41,415 nucleotides of DNA from Thermoplasmatota archaeon (lineage in GTDB: Archaea > Thermoplasmatota > Thermoplasmata > Thermoplasmatales > ARK-15), in NCBI GenBank assembly GCA_031961865.1, contig JAVRLB010000003.1, forward strand, positions 1 through 41,415, read 5' to 3'. A program made the translations under genes and the position numbers. Positions 25,960 to 32,486 of this stretch are shown here, in pieces (within the stretch, counting starts at the first letter, position 1; each line of letters starts with the position of its first letter). A model generated the notes under the pieces. The model was not told where the DNA came from and searched no databases. It saw only the letters and a program-made list of their open reading frames with translations.

Positions 25960-27154
25960 GGATATCAAGAAAGCAGAACAGGCCTTGAAAAATGTAGTTA
26001 AACATACTCCTGTAGAACATTCTAGAATATTCTCAGAGCTCACAGGCAATAATGTTTACTTGAAACTGGAAAATTTACAGACTACTGGCTCTTTTAAACT
26101 CAGAGGCGCATATTATAGGCTCAAAAATTTAACAGCGGAAGAAAAAAAGAGAGGAGTGGTTGCTTCTAGTGCGGGCAATCATGCTCAGGGAGTTGCGTAT
26201 TCTGCAACTTCTTTAGGAATATCATCTACGATCTTTATGCCAATCTTCACGCCTCCTATGAAAGTGATCGCCACTAAAAGTTACGGTGCTGAAGTAAGAT
26301 TAGTAGGTAACACCTATGATGATACATACATAGAAGCTATTGCTTTTGCCAAAAATGAAAACAAGAAATTTATACATCCATTTAACGATGAGCTTTTAAT
26401 AGCTGGTCAGGGAACTATAGGACTGGAGATGTTTGAGCAGGTAAAGGATCTTGATGCAGTTTTAGTGCCTATTGGTGGTGGAGGATTGATATCTGGAATT
26501 GCGCTGGCTCTTAAATCACTTAATAAAAATATCAGGGTAATAGGTGTGGAAGCAGAAGGTGCTCAATCTATGAAAATTTCAGTTGAGCAAAACCATATTG
26601 TTCCTCTAAAAAACCTGGACACAATTGCAGACGGAATTGCAGTTAAGACCCCTGGAGATATCACTTTTGAGCTTGTCAAAAAATATGTGGATGAACTGGT
26701 CTCTGTTAGCGATGCAGAGATATCCACAGCCATTTACATGCTCTTAAGCCGTGGCAAAATCATAGCTGAACCTGCGGGAGCAGTTACCCTGGCTGCGCTT
26801 TTATCAGGCAGGATCAATTTGAAAAATAAGAATATCTGTGCGCTTATTAGTGGCGGTAACATAAATTTAAGCTTGTTGACTCAGATCATAGAAAAAGGGT
26901 TGACAGAAGAGAAACTTTTAACGCGGGTTTCTATAATTATACCTGACAAACCCGGAGCTTTAAAAGATATCTTGAACTTTATCTCTAATTTAAAAGCGAA
27001 TGTGCAGGCTATAGAGGCAGATAGGCTTGATAGAGACATAGCTGTAGGAATGGTAAAAATCATTATCACGCTTCAAACCTTAGGTACGTACCATATTAGT
27101 TCACTCGAAAAGTTTTTCAGCGAAAATAACATCAAATATGAGATCATCAGTTAA
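25940..27154 (+). CDS. ilvA: Threonine ammonia-lyase with C-terminal ACT domain
   Basis: KLENLQTTGSFKLRGA, SAGNHAQG, PIGGGGLISG, SGGNI, PDKPGAL. Start uncertain (25931, 25940 or 25946). Confidence 0.93.
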   Translation: MNMIQFEDIKKAEQALKNVVKHTPVEHSRIFSELTGNNVYLKLENLQTTGSFKLRGAYYRLKNLTAEEKKRGVVASSAGNHAQGVAYSATSLGISSTIFMPIFTPPMKVIATKSYGAEVRLVGNTYDDTYIEAIAFAKNENKKFIHPFNDELLIAGQGTIGLEMFEQVKDLDAVLVPIGGGGLISGIALALKSLNKNIRVIGVEAEGAQSMKISVEQNHIVPLKNLDTIADGIAVKTPGDITFELVKKYVDELVSVSDAEISTAIYMLLSRGKIIAEPAGAVTLAALLSGRINLKNKNICALISGGNINLSLLTQIIEKGLTEEKLLTRVSIIIPDKPGALKDILNFISNLKANVQAIEADRLDRDIAVGMVKIIITLQTLGTYHISSLEKFFSENNIKYEIIS

Positions 27155-28457
27155 ATCTCACATACTTGTCCAGTTCTTCTTTTGCAACTTCTCTTTTTTC
27201 CTTTAAGTCTTTCAGAAACAGGTTGATTTTTTCAATAGCTTCTTTTTTACAGTTTCCGCACAGTCTGGTGCCTGCTTTGCACGTGTCATGTACCTCTTTT
27301 AGATAATTATCATCATCTACAAGATGATAAACATAATATTCGTATACTGAACATTCTTCAGGCTTACCACCAAATTTGCGATGCTCTTCAACAGTTGAGC
27401 CTCCACCAGTTTTGGCGTTCATCATCTTTTTCTTTACATCTGCAGGCTCTTCACTTAAAGATATATATGATTCTGGAACCGAAGAAGACATTTTTCTGGT
27501 ACCATCCAGAGAACTCATCAGTCTATGATATGTGGCTGCAGGCAAATAAAAACCGTAGCCACCTTCTTGCTTTTCTATCTCTAATAGCTTTTTTTCGATT
27601 ATAGATTGCTTTGCAAAATCAAAGTTTTTTATGTAAAGTGCCTTATATGGTATGTTTAATTCTATCTCTTTAATTCCAATTTTTTTAAGGTTGTCTGATA
27701 CAGTATTTAAAAGCTCTGCAACGTTATTATCTTGCTTTATAAAAATTCCCAGCCCGTTATCCGTTTGCTGGACACTGAAAAAACTGACCCTTCTCGTAAA
27801 CTCCCTGGCCAATCTTATGTGCGGGTCCTGGTCTATGCCCACCGGCACCACGGTAGGGATCGGACCTGAATATTTGTCAAGCTGAACATGCAGAATATCT
27901 CCTGACTGTACTAACGGACTTTCAACGTGCGCTAACGAGGTTTCATCTTTAAACCCATAGATACCTTTCATCTCAGATATATTGGTTCGTTTCGAAAAAA
28001 TAAATGCTAGATCTGTAACGTCCTTTCTGAGCGACTGAAAATAGATCTGTGAATGCTCTGGTTTTAGCCCTAATGCAATATAATTTAAAAAATACTCTTC
28101 TTCTGCGATTTTCAGAGTTTCTTTAAAACTTTTTCCTCGCGTAGCATATGCTTCTAGATCCGCAACCGCGATGTATATATCTGCACCTAAAGATTGGTAA
28201 TATATTACCTGGTCAATTGTCATTTTATGACCAAAATGCATCTTGCCAGATGGCATCAATCCTGTTAAAACCGCAAACTTCTCGTGATTGACTATTGCAT
28301 CGTAAACGGTATCAAACCCTCTGTGCCCGAATATTATATTTCTCCTGAACAGTTTTTGCGGATCTGGCAATTTAAAATTAAACTCTTCTATTCCAAACTC
28401 TCTTCGAAGCCTGTTATAATCAATAAACTGCTGGGATGACCAAGGATCTATAAACAT
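27147..28457 (-). CDS. trpS: Tryptophanyl-tRNA synthetase (archaeal type)
   Basis: TGLMPSGKMHFGH (HIGH-like), GIDQDPH, KMSSS, and a C-terminal Cys cluster. Confidence 0.95.
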   Translation of the reverse strand: MFIDPWSSQQFIDYNRLRREFGIEEFNFKLPDPQKLFRRNIIFGHRGFDTVYDAIVNHEKFAVLTGLMPSGKMHFGHKMTIDQVIYYQSLGADIYIAVADLEAYATRGKSFKETLKIAEEEYFLNYIALGLKPEHSQIYFQSLRKDVTDLAFIFSKRTNISEMKGIYGFKDETSLAHVESPLVQSGDILHVQLDKYSGPIPTVVPVGIDQDPHIRLAREFTRRVSFFSVQQTDNGLGIFIKQDNNVAELLNTVSDNLKKIGIKEIELNIPYKALYIKNFDFAKQSIIEKKLLEIEKQEGGYGFYLPAATYHRLMSSLDGTRKMSSSVPESYISLSEEPADVKKKMMNAKTGGGSTVEEHRKFGGKPEECSVYEYYVYHLVDDDNYLKEVHDTCKAGTRLCGNCKKEAIEKINLFLKDLKEKREVAKEELDKYVRFN

Positions 28458-28492
28458 AGAAAAAAGAATAAAAAGTAATTATTTAATAGTTT

Positions 28493-29452
28493 CTATCTTA
28501 TTTCCTGCATTACTTTTAATGTATTGCCGTCTAACGTAAATACCATTGTCTCTTTTCCTTTGTACAAATATTTCAATACCCAGATAGGCACATGCAATAA
28601 CTCCCCATCTGAAACATTTACGTTAGTCTGTATTGACTGAATCATATGGTGCTCTGAATGTGCTTTTTTATCCTGCAGCTGATTTATATAACCTTTCGCA
28701 GAATTTTTGGCAGCCTCTTCTCCTAGGTCTCCATTCAAAACTTTTATATTTTTTGGTATTTTGGTCGTATCAAACAATTCTCTGTTCTGTATATTAAATT
28801 GATAATCTAACGCCTGGTACTGCTGATATCCTTTAACAGCGACCACGGGATACTGATATTCTCCATGTATCGTATAACTCTTTTTTATGTCTACGGGTGC
28901 ACCTACAGCAAGTATGGGCCCGCGACCACGACTTACCGCACTGCTCAAAGCTGCCGCAGCAACCATTGTACCAACTGTCGTAGCTATGCTCTCTCCTGTT
29001 TCTGAAGCCACATAAGTTGTAGTTGCAGTTGCCGGTATTATCCAGTATGGTACCATGCTCACAGAGATCTCCTTTAATTCAGAATGCTCAGCTACATGCT
29101 TGTGAAATATACCTTTATCCATCCATTCTTTTACTATCTCTATGACCTGATTGTTGTCGAGTGTCTTTGGTGGTAACATAGTATGGCTCTGAATCTGTTT
29201 CCAGCCCTCATTCGAAAGCGTGATAGAACTGCCACAGTACTCACAGGTAATTATCATCTCTCCAAACTTCGGAGAAAATGGCGCACCGCAGTTTGGACAT
29301 TTCAGCTCTTTGAGTATATGTGCCTCTTGAGCTGGTTTTGCCTCTGCCTGCTGAGCAGGTTGCGTTGTAACTTTTGCACCGCATTTATAACAGAATTGCG
29401 CATCATCGGGTAATTGTGCTCCACATTTACTACAGTATATCATTTTTTTCAC
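28493..29452 (-). CDS. Zinc-ribbon protein, YdjG-like
   Basis: CSKC..CYKC and CPNC..CEYC ribbons, then VPYW and HVPIWVLKYLYKGK...DGNTLKV. GTG start overlaps the upstream stop. Confidence 0.75.
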   Translation of the reverse strand: MKKMIYCSKCGAQLPDDAQFCYKCGAKVTTQPAQQAEAKPAQEAHILKELKCPNCGAPFSPKFGEMIITCEYCGSSITLSNEGWKQIQSHTMLPPKTLDNNQVIEIVKEWMDKGIFHKHVAEHSELKEISVSMVPYWIIPATATTTYVASETGESIATTVGTMVAAAALSSAVSRGRGPILAVGAPVDIKKSYTIHGEYQYPVVAVKGYQQYQALDYQFNIQNRELFDTTKIPKNIKVLNGDLGEEAAKNSAKGYINQLQDKKAHSEHHMIQSIQTNVNVSDGELLHVPIWVLKYLYKGKETMVFTLDGNTLKVMQEIR

Positions 29453-30588
29453 GCTCCTGCAATTTTATAACCGCAGTTAGGACAGAATTTTGTACCCACT
29501 GGCACCTCTGCATGACAGTTTGGACATGTTATTGTACCTGACAATTTTGTGCCACAGTTAGGACAGAATTTTGTGCCTGCCGGCACAACAGCCTTGCAAT
29601 TTGGACATGTGATCGTAGCTGCAGCTGGAGTTTGATCCGCACCGCACACAGGACAGTATTTTGCATTGGCATCTATCATAGCTCCACATTTAATGCACTT
29701 TTTTTGATTCTGTTGTTGATACATCTGCCCGGACATCATACCGCCTACACCCATTCCAGCTCCTAACCCTACACCCAATCCTGTCATAGCACCTGCACCT
29801 CCACTTGGATTTTTCGCAGCGTCTACCATTGCTTGACCTGCCTGATATTGCATATAGTTCACTCCCAGAACTGACATTTGAGATCTTAAATCAATTGCTT
29901 TTTGTACCTCATCCGGCAAATTTATAGACAATCCTGATATCTTATTGATTTCCAATCCGTACTGGTCAAAATGCGAGGTTGAATTTGCAAGCACAGCCTG
30001 CTCTATGTTAGTCAGGTTTGCTGCCAGGTCTGTGACTTTCAACCCCTGCGCCTTCATCTTTCCTAACGTATCATATACTAATATTACCATCTGGTCTTTC
30101 ATTCTTGCTTCAACATCTGCAGAGGTTTCAGCATTGAAAGTTCCTACAAACTGATTTATAAAATTCTCTGGATGAGATATTCTATATCTATATTCCCCGA
30201 ATACACGCAGGTTCACTATGCCAAAATCTGCATCGTTGAATATGTATGGCTCTTTGCTGCCAAACTTGCCGTCCAGAAACCTGCGCTGCAGATAATAAAC
30301 TTCAGCTTGCTGTTGAACTCCTGACAAAAATTGGACCAGTTTTCCTGCCACCGGAGCATTTAGTGATGTTAACGCATATCGATCTGGTTTATCAAAATAT
30401 GTTAATACTTTACCATCCCTGAAAAAAACAGCAATTTCATCTTCTCTTACTACTATGTTATCATTTAATCTGATATTTCTTGGAACTTTCCACATAATAT
30501 TGGTCTCTTTGTATTGATCTTCCCATATTATTGTGGTAGCACCTATTACGCTATCGCCACTTCCTACCTGCGCTTGCTTTTTAAACAT
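29449..30588 (-). CDS. SPFH/Band-7 (YdjI-like) protein with three C-terminal CxxC..CxxC ribbons
   Basis: VREDEIAVFFRDG, KFGSKEP...LRVFGEY, INLPDEVQKAID, Gly-rich GLGVGLGAGMG, three zinc-ribbon units. GGAGG RBS. Confidence 0.88.
   Translation of the reverse strand: MFKKQAQVGSGDSVIGATTIIWEDQYKETNIMWKVPRNIRLNDNIVVREDEIAVFFRDGKVLTYFDKPDRYALTSLNAPVAGKLVQFLSGVQQQAEVYYLQRRFLDGKFGSKEPYIFNDADFGIVNLRVFGEYRYRISHPENFINQFVGTFNAETSADVEARMKDQMVILVYDTLGKMKAQGLKVTDLAANLTNIEQAVLANSTSHFDQYGLEINKISGLSINLPDEVQKAIDLRSQMSVLGVNYMQYQAGQAMVDAAKNPSGGAGAMTGLGVGLGAGMGVGGMMSGQMYQQQNQKKCIKCGAMIDANAKYCPVCGADQTPAAATITCPNCKAVVPAGTKFCPNCGTKLSGTITCPNCHAEVPVGTKFCPNCGYKIAGA
29471..29619 (-). repeat. 81-bp-period intragenic tandem repeat (27-aa zinc-ribbon unit)
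   Basis: cc(g/a)cagttaggacagaattttgt occurs at 29471 and 29552. Encodes TITCPNCxAxVPxGTKFCPNCG twice. Confidence 0.85.
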
Positions 30589-30603
30589 AATATATTCCTC
30601 CGT

Positions 30604-31134
30604 TTATACCTTTATACCTTGTATTACTATCATCCTCTCATTAAACTTATCTCTCAGATCCCTTATAGCACCAGATACAGATTGTAGCTTTGCATAGCTA
30701 TCCTGAGAGTTTCCGCTCATCACCGCACTCACAAGTTCCTTTATTTCATTATTTAGTGTATCTGCCTGCGCTATAAAATTATAATCATACTCGTACATCG
30801 CATTAAGATTTTCTGCCGTAATTCGAATAGGCGGCGAGATCCCGGAGTATCCTTGCTGTGCATGTCTTATCGCTCCTTCCAATTGCTGGATCTCAGAGAA
30901 CAGTGTTTGAAACTGGGATAATCCTGCATACAAGCCTCTGTCTACAAGCATTTTTCTTAAATCCTGAAGGCTGTTTATGTTTTCATGCACTCTATTTGCA
31001 ATCTGGATTCTAAGATAATTATCTGCTTCTCTTATATCTTCTAATTTCCTATACCCTGAATATCCTGGTATTAATAACTGCAACTTCTTTAAAACTCCTC
31101 TGCTATCTTCGACCTGATCTCTTATATCTGCCAT
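30604..31134 (-). CDS. Conserved hypothetical alpha-helical protein
   Basis: IPGYSGYRKLEDIREAD, GYSG, YEYD; predicted helical. ATG at 31134 is preceded by a GAGGTG RBS. Confidence 0.8.
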   Translation of the reverse strand: MADIRDQVEDSRGVLKKLQLLIPGYSGYRKLEDIREADNYLRIQIANRVHENINSLQDLRKMLVDRGLYAGLSQFQTLFSEIQQLEGAIRHAQQGYSGISPPIRITAENLNAMYEYDYNFIAQADTLNNEIKELVSAVMSGNSQDSYAKLQSVSGAIRDLRDKFNERMIVIQGIKV

Positions 31135-31135
31135 A

Positions 31136-31510
31136 TTATTTTGCACCTCGGCTTCTTTTAACACTCTCTAAAGACCTTACCCTCCAGTATATAAATACCA
31201 GAGAAATTACAAAAATCAGAAGTAGAATTAATAGATATGGAAAACTGAACTTTATTGCTGTATTTGCGTAAAAAAGTGCGCCAAACCCAAAAATATAGTA
31301 TATCCATACAAAGCTTTTTAATACTATGTTTGTACCTGTAAAAGCGTATAATATATAACCAGTAAGAGAGAATACTAAAGACAGTATGCCAATATAAACT
31401 ACTGCCACTAATTTATCTGTATTGGATACTAAGAGATAATAGAATAATAGTACTGCAAACAATGTCAGTACTATCGCAATAATTACACCAATGAATGTGC
31501 TCCTTTTCAT
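31136..31510 (-). CDS. Hypothetical 4-TM membrane protein
   Basis: Four hydrophobic segments, basic C-terminal tail, GAGGT RBS. First gene of the operon. Confidence 0.8.
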   Translation of the reverse strand: MKRSTFIGVIIAIVLTLFAVLLFYYLLVSNTDKLVAVVYIGILSLVFSLTGYILYAFTGTNIVLKSFVWIYYIFGFGALFYANTAIKFSFPYLLILLLIFVISLVFIYWRVRSLESVKRSRGAK

Positions 31511-31712
31511 TTAAATCATACCTCATAACTTTATCAAATATATCTATTTTTCCATATATTTATATTTTTGTGAAATGATAAAAACATGCTAATTAAACTT
31601 TAGCTGTAAATATATAGATGTTTCATAGACCCGGGATGTAAGGTAAAAAATAAAAATTTTTATATAGTAGATTACAAATGCCGAAACTATTATAAAAAAA
31701 AGGTGAACTTTT

Positions 31713-31877
31713 ATGTCAACAAAGTTGTTCGAAGTTGAAGTGGTAAGGGATGGAGATATATTTATTGCAAGAATTACGCTGCAGAGTGGAGAAGTAGTGA
31801 GCATAGAAAGCGAGAATCTAGACGAAGTGCTAGAAAACTTGAGCTCAGAACTACAAGAGAAATATGATGCTTTATAA
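31713..31877 (+). CDS. 54-aa acidic protein, possibly HicB-like fold (not in ORF track)
   Basis: AGGTGA RBS at 31701-31706. ATG..TAA ORF MSTKLFEVEVVRDGDIFIARITLQSGEVVSIESENLDEVLENLSSELQEKYDAL. Confidence 0.8.
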   Translation: MSTKLFEVEVVRDGDIFIARITLQSGEVVSIESENLDEVLENLSSELQEKYDAL

Positions 31878-32486
31878 AAAAATCACTCTTTTCCCATTAA
31901 TTATATACTTTTTTTCAGTAATATTTTTAAGTGCCTCAATTAGTGTTTCATGTTCATATGGCAATATTCGTTCTGCCAGACTTTTTGGCGTATCTGTATC
32001 TAGAACATTCACAGCAGTTTGAGCAATTATAGGACCACCATCGATATCTTCAGTTACAAAGTGCACAGTACATCCAGAAACTTTACATCCCGCTTTTAAC
32101 ACTGCCTCGTGCACATGTTCTCCATAGTACCCTTTACCGCCAAATGCTGGAAGTAGTGCAGGGTGAATGTTTATAATTTTATTTTCATATCTTCTTATAA
32201 ATTTAGAGGTTAAAATCTTTAAATATCCAGCAAGTATCACTAGATCTACATTATGCTCTTCTAAAATTTTCAGCACTAATTCATCAAATTCTTCATCACT
32301 CTTGTTTTTTGGAGAAATATATAAAGCAGGGATTTTATTGATGCTGGCACGTTCTAACCCATATGCATCTTTTCTGTTGGATATTACAACCTTGATCTCG
32401 CAGTTAAGTTTGCCAGCTTTTATAGCATCTATTATAGACTGAAGATTAGTGCCATGTCCAGAAATCAATACACCTAAATTTACCAT
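31872..32486 (-). CDS. purN: Phosphoribosylglycinamide formyltransferase
   Basis: LISGHGTNLQ, LAGY, INIHPALLP, GCTVHFV, DGGPII. Confidence 0.95.
   Translation of the reverse strand: MVNLGVLISGHGTNLQSIIDAIKAGKLNCEIKVVISNRKDAYGLERASINKIPALYISPKNKSDEEFDELVLKILEEHNVDLVILAGYLKILTSKFIRRYENKIINIHPALLPAFGGKGYYGEHVHEAVLKAGCKVSGCTVHFVTEDIDGGPIIAQTAVNVLDTDTPKSLAERILPYEHETLIEALKNITEKKYIINGKRVIFL

Follow-up and report, generated by a model that had tools for sequence, protein, structure and literature searches.

The window analysed here, a stretch of 41,415 nt from a Thermoplasmatota archaeon (contig JAVRLB010000003.1 of assembly GCA_031961865.1), carries on its minus strand four genes that the list of open reading frames (ORFs) places head to tail at positions 28493-31510. 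We call them p1 to p4 in their 5' to 3' order, and they probably encode a PspA-independent archaeal membrane-scaffold module, built around the SPFH protein p3 and akin to YdjG/YdjI (SamG/SamI) of the Bacillus subtilis pspA-ydjGHI system. We base this reading on four observations: the order of the genes, the homologies of p3 and of the zinc-ribbon protein p4, the linkage of the helical protein p2 to the SPFH gene, and the absence of PspA from the genome. An earlier sequence-only reading had taken the four genes for a PspA-less relative of the ydjGI system, in which p2 and p1 replace PspA and YdjH and which serves in envelope stress or antiviral defense; the likeness to YdjI and YdjG and the lack of PspA are upheld by the data below, whereas a replacement of PspA in kind, the replacement of YdjH, and the antiviral option are not.

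The central component, p3, is supported as a soluble SPFH protein of the YdjI/SamI type, as the earlier reading had it: it combines a Band_7_1 domain, a low-complexity linker, and C-terminal zinc ribbons with the lack of any transmembrane (TM) segment. The match to PF13421 (Band_7_1) reaches 124.1 bits (E 7.6e-36, cut-off 24) and is recovered in the search of the whole genome as well. All ribbons of p3 are intact, with cysteines that are invariant in alignment A3, and relatives carry two or three of them; in a crude hydropathy scan the SPFH ORFs of the relatives likewise contain zero TM segments. Identity to relatives in other archaeal phyla is 59-69%. In a control search B. subtilis also yields a PF13421 member, which we take to be YdjI, and so do Sulfolobus acidocaldarius and Methanosarcina acetivorans yield a PF13421 match; a PDB sequence search with p3 returned no match to its SPFH part. 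Outside the window, the same genome holds a second, weaker SPFH-like match in a 292-amino-acid (aa) frame (G000:C12:15378-15566, locus L082; PF13421 at 22 bits, below cut-off); similar weak matches in frames of ~270-300 aa recur across the class, and the L082 frame is probably a stomatin-type paralogue.

The relatives of p4 number 1112 at E<=0.001 among 3038 candidates. Both N-terminal ribbons are intact and their cysteines are invariant in alignment A2; Zn_Ribbon_TF on residues 51-75 scores below its cut-off. The AlphaFold2 (AF2) model of the domain that follows consists of helices packed on antiparallel sheets in a PepSY/YpeB/cystatin-like arrangement, into which a hydrophobic Gly-rich segment is inserted between two long strands (residues 124-151 and 189-204), with per-residue confidence (pLDDT) below 50 at residues 155-178; in p4 relatives the same place holds one or two hydrophobic segments rich in Gly and Met. 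The top matches of VIA-align are PepSY-type domains: it superposes the model on 4exr_A (Z 6.0, root-mean-square deviation (rmsd) 2.0, 64 aligned residues), on the YpeB C-terminal domain 5boi_A (Z 6.0, rmsd 2.3, 67 aligned), and on YpmB, 2gu3_A (Z 5.4, rmsd 2.2, 62 aligned), all of which, lying under Z 8, are weak by the tool's own note. Foldseek found no match to the p4 model in the PDB at E<=0.001, and sequence and profile searches of the PDB returned zinc-ribbon matches only, such as the ArnA ribbon at E 4e-4 with the A2 profile.

The firmest link to bacteria comes from hhalign, in which the p4 profile (A2) aligns with a Paracoccus zinc-ribbon protein (L084:6109-7395) at a probability of 97.1% (E 6.9e-11, 133 columns) covering the two ribbons and the domain's first half; the C-terminal strands of the Paracoccus protein share p4's motif and are followed by a TM helix. 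This profile match makes p4 a homologue of the anchors that are linked to SPFH genes in bacteria. Its likeness to YdjG, proposed from the window's sequence, also holds in layout, with two ribbons, a weak match to a YpeB-related domain, and a presumed membrane segment, as YdjG is portrayed in the literature cited below. Protein Atlas look-alikes of p4, which serve as leads only, are bacterial clusters labelled 'Primosomal protein N'.

What makes these genes a module is their linkage. We started from 414 p4 relatives in species-representative genomes and examined the best 80 loci by tblastn with the window's proteins: p2, p3, and p4 are found together and co-oriented in 66 of the 80, which is 66 of the 71 informative loci, with median gaps between hits of 57 and 24.5 nt. 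Nine of the 80 are cut at a contig end, and in three of these the SPFH gene is still visible; five have room for p2 and p3 but contain neither, with unrelated neighbors (L037, L038, L057, L065, L080). The record titles place the triads in Thermoplasmata, in Nitrososphaerota/Thaumarchaeota (Nitrosotalea among them), in bins labelled Methanomassiliicoccales, and in one Methanomethyliaceae bin. In these loci most p4 proteins are 45-54% and most p2 proteins 37-48% identical to those of the window. Co-occurrence elsewhere, on which the earlier reading had staked itself, is thus seen for p2-p3-p4, which is widespread; an ORF with at least three predicted TM segments stands in the place of p1 in 32 of the 66 triads.

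A second census was based on p2. The p2 profile matches 79 of the 121 genomes of the window's class (54 of the 88 high-quality ones; the 121 include one unpublished genome, G098), and PF13421 matches 95 of the 121, 87 of them over cut-off, with all 79 p2-positive genomes among the 95. Six genomes have a full-length Band_7_1 gene and no p2 hit, and in four of these a locus search shows a divergent p2 directly 5' of the SPFH gene. We further inspected 32 class loci, made up of the 12 best hits and 20 chosen ones (the six weakest single hits, three with extra copies, and 11 from long contigs), and found an SPFH gene directly 3' of p2 in 30 of 33 copies, the three exceptions being extra or lone p2 copies with no adjoining SPFH gene (the second copy in L106, 9784-10338; L107:4318-4977; L108:1533-2069). 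The p4-type gene varies more: it lies 5' of the pair or on both sides of it in L118 and L119, and several weaker p4-type paralogues are present in L106, L110, and L117. Because p4-type genes are less constant than p2, the firm unit is the p2-SPFH pair, usually with at least one p4-type anchor, and it is this pair plus anchor, not the four genes as such, that is conserved.

At the p3/p4 junction, 11 of the 66 loci have the SPFH stop codon (TAG in nine) in frame with the anchor gene 3-5 codons on (L002, L006, L018, L021, L040, L041, L043, L072, L074, L075, L076). A p3-p4 fusion of ~700 aa at these 11 loci was considered and rejected, as an in-frame stop, mostly TAG, separates the genes; moreover, 11 of 66 is below the one-third expected by chance, so the fusion idea was dropped and the pattern is probably meaningless.

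The partner p2 belongs to a large family with no assigned function. Of 209 candidates, 154 prove to be relatives at E<=0.001, and the family comprises 1404 clusters (50% identity) at E<=0.001 and 759 at E<=1e-10. No Pfam family matches p2 over cut-off. NCBIfam NF047596 (the LIMLP_15305 family) aligns with nearly its full length at 38.1 bits (E 1.4e-9) against an equivalog cut-off of 210 bits, and 38 of 38 aligned p2 members match NF047596 at E<=0.001 (best 7e-18), all far under that cut-off; by sequence p2 is therefore a distant homologue of this family, not a member, which indicates distant bacterial homologues with no assigned function. The Leptospira gene LIMLP_15305 turned up in the literature as a locus tag only, in one paper's table. 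Fused forms of p2 include a zinc ribbon joined to p2, p2 joined to DUF4178 (P0314, P0357), and one p2 N-terminal fragment joined to Band_7_1, and Protein Atlas look-alikes (again leads only) are Chloroflexota and Methanobacteriota clusters. The AF2 model of p2 is a compact four-helix bundle (pLDDT 77.6, predicted TM-score 0.74; helices 31-65, 72-90, 107-140, and 143-175) preceded by an N-terminal peptide that is poorly modelled and strongly conserved; 20 columns are invariant across 38 sequences.

It is important to note what p2 does not resemble. The earlier reading supposed that the helical protein replaces PspA in kind, and the comparison with PspA, Vipp1, and ESCRT-III by profile and fold searches gave no match: p2 shows nothing against PF04012 (PspA) or PF03357 (Snf7) at E<=0.1, no PspA, Vipp1, or ESCRT-III chain appears in sequence and profile searches of the PDB up to E 10, and none is among the matches listed by the Foldseek and VIA fold searches, an absence that does not exclude an ESCRT-III fold. 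Foldseek returned no PDB match to the p2 model at E<=0.001; the best fold match is the HIP1R THATCH core (Z 10.7, rmsd 3.5, 143 aligned), which falls short of Z 13, the level from which the tool regards matches between helical bundles as informative. PspA is also missing from the surroundings: the window's own genome, 98.8% complete, has no match to PF04012, to PF04536 (TPM_phosphatase), or to PF03357, and PF04012 scores over cut-off in 0 of the 121 genomes of the class. Therefore, the module cannot work by recruiting PspA, and the 'PspA-less' part of the earlier description stands.

A model of p3, p4, and p2 as a complex, with p2 as the scored partner, hints at contact between p2 and the SPFH protein p3: the score is 0.40, the best control scores 0.00, and so does the model in which p3 is replaced. 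At least 92% of contacts are shared between runs, and the partner has a pLDDT of at least 65. The mark applied is reached by 116 of 157 solved complexes and by 2 of 215 mismatched pairs, though at scores of 0.60 or below by only 18 of the 157 solved complexes and by both passing mismatches. The binding of p2 to the SPFH protein, a partner contact of the kind that the earlier reading had proposed to model, thus receives weak support.

The remaining gene, p1, is a lineage-restricted accessory. Pfam yields no match over cut-off (the best is DUF3021, E 0.026, at 15 bits against a cut-off of 24.7), but a profile of positional counterparts does. Within the 66 triads, 32 have a co-directional ORF with at least three predicted TM segments that ends within 450 nt 5' of p2; from these 32 we drew 29 co-directional four-TM ORFs of ~180-194 aa, leaving out L001 (a near-identical relative) and L021 and L067 (odd lengths), and the resulting profile scores p1 at 44.9 bits (E 2.2e-15), whereas the best of 200 shuffles reaches 1.1 bits. 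By the same crude test, 13 of the other triads are Nitrosotalea-type loci with an unrelated ~255-aa protein in this place and 21 have nothing there; p1-type ORFs occur mainly in loci labelled Thermoplasmata. From the profile score we conclude that p1 is a real member of the module, restricted to a lineage. Since p1 has no TPM domain, nothing ties it to YdjH, and the idea that the four-TM protein replaces YdjH is not supported.

Two further kinds of gene occupy the position 5' of p2. In two loci that lack a p4-type gene, four-TM ORFs of 121-125 aa lie directly 5' of p2 (L100:4050-4427, L111:4161-4526); they escape the p1 profile at E<=0.001 and may be very divergent p1 proteins or a second small membrane partner. 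The Nitrosotalea-type ~255-aa protein (L009:3485-4246 and 12 other loci) has a signal-peptide-like start and a Trp-rich C-terminal motif repeated twice. It was considered as a YdjH counterpart and rejected, as it matches no Pfam family and reads as a secreted repeat protein; its gene is probably a passenger.

In light of these results, we propose that p3 would act as a soluble SPFH scaffold that, like other SPFH proteins, probably assembles into a ring or cage beneath the membrane, and that p4 would be the membrane anchor that tethers it through a hydrophobic hairpin, a role modelled on YdjG genetics. The helical protein p2, with its observed gene linkage and its weakly modelled binding to p3, would be the dedicated soluble partner of this SPFH subfamily, acting as a regulator, adaptor, or effector in the place that PspA holds in Bacillus without being a PspA homologue, and p1 would probably add a second membrane component. 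The likely task of such a module would be to organize or protect the cytoplasmic membrane under stress.

Several points weigh against this proposal. The stress role is carried over from Bacillus by analogy, and SamGHI is there linked to development and not to repair only (Baur et al. 2026, PMC13713150). The likeness of p3 and p4 to YdjI and YdjG was drawn from published descriptions of the B. subtilis proteins rather than from direct sequence comparison; the PepSY/YpeB matches of p4 (Z at most 6) may, by the tool's warning, reflect only a common arrangement; and the hydrophobic segment of p4 lies inside its domain, whereas the Paracoccus relative and, by its published description, YdjG carry it after the domain, so that the topology may differ. 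The complex model, too, gives only weak support. In terms of gene content, the p4 profile finds no match near the p2-SPFH pair in L100-L105 and L111-L114, and the p2 profile (A1) finds no relative in the four Band_7_1-bearing bacterial loci examined, which lie on plasmids or chromids.

Four other explanations were weighed against the scaffold proposal. The best surviving, though unlikely, is a quality-control cage of the HflK/C or stomatin/NfeD kind, in which p3 forms a ring around a membrane protease or client, p2 is the adaptor, and p4 the tether, with no part in membrane repair. Prokaryotic SPFH genes typically have partners of their own in the operon, and the very high conservation of p3 across phyla would suit a structural assembly. 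The HflK/C 24-mer cage, as cited in the Makarova et al. 2024 preprint (PMC11188069), illustrates general SPFH behavior. However, no protease or client gene is conserved nearby, and the flanks differ between lineages.

Slightly less probable still is that p2 is a functional stand-in for PspA or ESCRT-III, a membrane-binding, polymerizing protein recruited by the SPFH scaffold to damaged membrane. Such a role would fit the position of p2, which relative to the SPFH and anchor genes is that of pspA, and the lack of PspA in the genome and class; it would also fit the modelled p2-p3 contact and the middling fold matches of p2 to lipid- or membrane-active bundles such as the MLKL N-terminal bundle (Z 7.5), apolipoproteins, IncA, and SPECT. 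These helical matches, however, are in the uninformative range, the failure of the profile, PDB, and listed fold searches to return any PspA, Vipp1, or ESCRT-III counts against it, and the p2 model is a compact four-helix bundle and not a long hairpin.

We consider it improbable that the module is a regulatory device whose zinc ribbons bind nucleic acid, or sequester a regulator at the membrane, and so control gene expression. The ribbon type of YdjG is known from DNA-binding proteins (Popp et al. 2022), and loss of SamI in Bacillus alters global transcription, but the study that reports this attributes the effect to unbalanced SamH activity (Baur et al. 2026, PMC13713150). Furthermore, the ribbons here are of the generic Zn_Ribbon_1/DZR kind common on membrane proteins, with no helix-turn-helix or other DNA-binding domain beside them. 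An antiviral defense or abortive-infection module at the membrane, the alternative named in the sequence-only reading, is very improbable: a marginal PADLOC match of p3 to LeoBC (E 0.0013, 16 bits) is set against the lack of any PADLOC family at E<=0.001 for all four proteins (p4 to REase_II is at E 0.017), housekeeping-looking neighbors (tRNA-synthetase-like and formyltransferase-like), and a module present in 79 of 121 class genomes, mostly as a single match and with strongly conserved proteins, unlike patchy, fast-evolving defense islands.

The organization of the locus agrees with what had been read from its letters (Table 1). The four genes are co-directional, with a 1-nt gap between p1 and p2, a 15-nt gap between p2 and p3, and between p3 and p4 a 4-nt overlap if p4 starts at its GTG or a 5-nt gap if it starts at the ATG. 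This ATG lies three codons after the GTG and is where p4 relatives start; the cluster representative P0121 has 316 aa. For p2 an upstream GTG offers an alternative start that would give 186 aa. The three clear ribosome-binding sites noted earlier are there as Shine-Dalgarno-like purine-rich motifs 5' of p1 (GAGGT), p2 (GAGGTG), and p3 (GGAGG), with a weaker one (GGAGCG) for p4, and the protein types are as first described: a four-TM protein, a 176-aa helical protein, a three-ribbon SPFH protein, and a protein that has two ribbons and, further inside, a hydrophobic stretch. We regard all four genes as real and not as chance ORFs, on the sequence evidence of the relatives of p2 and p4, the PF13421 score of p3, and the profile score of p1.

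Table 1. Genes and sequence features of the p1-p4 locus (window coordinates; residues in protein numbering)
Feature	Coordinates	Strand	Basis or remark
p1	31510..31136	-	ORF, 124 aa, four hydrophobic (TM) segments
p2	31134 (ATG)..30604	-	ORF, 176 aa
p3	30588..29449	-	ORF, 379 aa
p4	29452..28493	-	ORF, 319 aa from GTG; 316 aa from ATG at 29443
Leader of p1, AT-rich, with TATA-like runs and GAGGT	31511..31590	-	presumed promoter and ribosome-binding-site region; sequence only
SPFH (Band_7_1) domain of p3, residues 37-239	29872..30480	-	Pfam
Gly/Ala/Met-rich low-complexity linker of p3, ~residues 262-290	29719..29805	-	sequence and alignment A3
Three CxxC..CxxC C-terminal zinc ribbons of p3, residues 296-377	29458..29703	-	Zn_Ribbon_1 in three stretches, DZR in two
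Two N-terminal zinc ribbons of p4 (residues 6-28 and 51-75) with Q/A/P-rich spacer	29228..29437	-	Zn_Ribbon_1 E 8.2e-12; DZR
Alpha/beta domain of p4, residues 85-319	28496..29200	-	AF2, pLDDT 80.6
Hydrophobic Gly-rich insert within the p4 domain, ~residues 155-188	28889..28990	-	presumed membrane-dipping hairpin
T-rich spacer, 35 nt, from p4 stop to aminoacyl-tRNA-synthetase-like ORF	28458..28492	-	sequence only

The 35-nt T-rich spacer may be an oligo-T terminator, a candidate named from its letters. Beyond it lies a co-directional 436-aa aminoacyl-tRNA-synthetase-like ORF (27147-28457, minus strand), 35 nt from the module, and on the upstream side a 204-aa formyltransferase-like ORF (31872-32486, minus strand), both named by reading their sequence. 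In many Thermoplasmata loci the flanking genes are co-directional and very large, with a tetratricopeptide-repeat (TPR) protein of ~1100-1240 aa upstream and a PKD/beta-propeller protein of ~1110 aa downstream (for example L008:149-3634 and L008:7241-10579).

Although SPFH proteins are found in all domains of life, there is no agreement yet on how they act. The YdjI-type SPFH protein of Bacillus is mostly understood as a recruiter of PspA; here, the same scaffold-anchor pair is widespread in a class in whose searched genomes no PspA was found, which suggests that the core function of this SPFH subfamily does not depend on PspA, and p2, unstudied and coupled to the SPFH gene almost without exception, is a concrete candidate for its partner. 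A bolder form of the proposal, which we hold to be doubtful, is that Band_7_1 proteins universally have the p2 family as their dedicated partner, much as stomatin and flotillin have NfeD, and that this family might be a membrane-active bundle that is caged or released by the SPFH ring and seals or reshapes stressed membranes. If so, the pairing would represent an ancient membrane-maintenance machine, independent of PspA and ESCRT-III, that is common to archaea and bacteria.

The literature that we searched yielded no description of the archaeal p2-SPFH-anchor module; it did yield the Bacillus system and general surveys of phage shock protein (PSP) and ESCRT systems, whose supplementary tables (Ravi et al. 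2024, Popp et al. 2022, Makarova et al. 2024) may list such contexts. The closest known system is that of B. subtilis. According to Scholz et al. 2021 (PMC8581546), YdjI has a low-complexity region before its zinc finger, depends on YdjG and YdjH for membrane localization, and is required for PspA foci; Ravi et al. 2024 (PMC11237479) describe YdjG as two zinc ribbons, a YpeB-related domain, and a TM segment, and assign a TPM domain to YdjH. The pspA-ydjGHI operon is pictured likewise by Popp et al. 2022, and Baur et al. 2026 (PMC13713150) rename ydjGHI as samGHI. As in that system, we find in one operon a soluble Band_7_1-type SPFH protein with a low-complexity segment and C-terminal ribbons (p3 and YdjI) and a membrane protein that starts with two ribbons (p4 and YdjG), followed in p4, by weak fold matches, by a possible YpeB/PepSY-like domain. 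The differences are equally plain: the archaeal genome has neither pspA nor a TPM-domain YdjH and instead has p2, from another helical family, and the four-TM p1; p3, unlike YdjI, has three ribbons; the hydrophobic segment of p4 is within its domain and not after it as in the descriptions of YdjG; the gene order is p2-SPFH-anchor here and pspA-ydjG-ydjH-ydjI in Bacillus; and whereas YdjI recruits PspA to the membrane, there is no PspA here for p3 to recruit.

Among archaea, a parallel is found in the 'Meth_adaptin' ESCRT loci of methanogens, which according to the Makarova et al. 2024 preprint (PMC11188069) encode SPFH + coiled-coil + zinc-ribbon proteins. They too feature an archaeal SPFH protein with a zinc ribbon and are discussed there as linked to ESCRT-III/PspA-type systems, but they include ESCRT- and adaptin-like genes, whereas Snf7 and PspA were not found in the present genome. 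A different bacterial arrangement is seen on the Ralstonia wenshanensis plasmid p56D2 (L085), where a Band_7_1 SPFH gene lies between DUF350 and DUF4178 and beside an aminopropyltransferase gene and speD, a layout that matches the polyamine-linked band-7 operons described by Ravi et al. 2024 (PMC11237479); the DUF4178 gene beside this SPFH gene connects with the p2-DUF4178 fusions described above.

Two further comparisons bear on the partnership itself. Stomatin and flotillin genes form operon pairs with NfeD-type genes, as in QmcA-YbbJ and FloT-YuaF. The pairing of p2 with p3 resembles these in that a small gene of the same operon is almost invariably dedicated to the SPFH gene, but the NfeD partners are membrane proteins with an OB-fold domain, whereas p2 is predicted to be a soluble helical bundle and its SPFH partner is of a different subfamily. 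YuaF/YqiJ are mentioned by Ravi et al. 2024 (PMC11237479). Finally, the proteobacterial TelA-DUF2927-SPFH-zinc-ribbon operon on Paracoccus pFER4 (L084) has TelA and DUF2927 as its upstream partners, with no p2 (A1) match, and its anchor ends in a TM helix; nevertheless, as in the archaeal module, a two-ribbon anchor homologous to p4 sits directly 3' of the SPFH gene.

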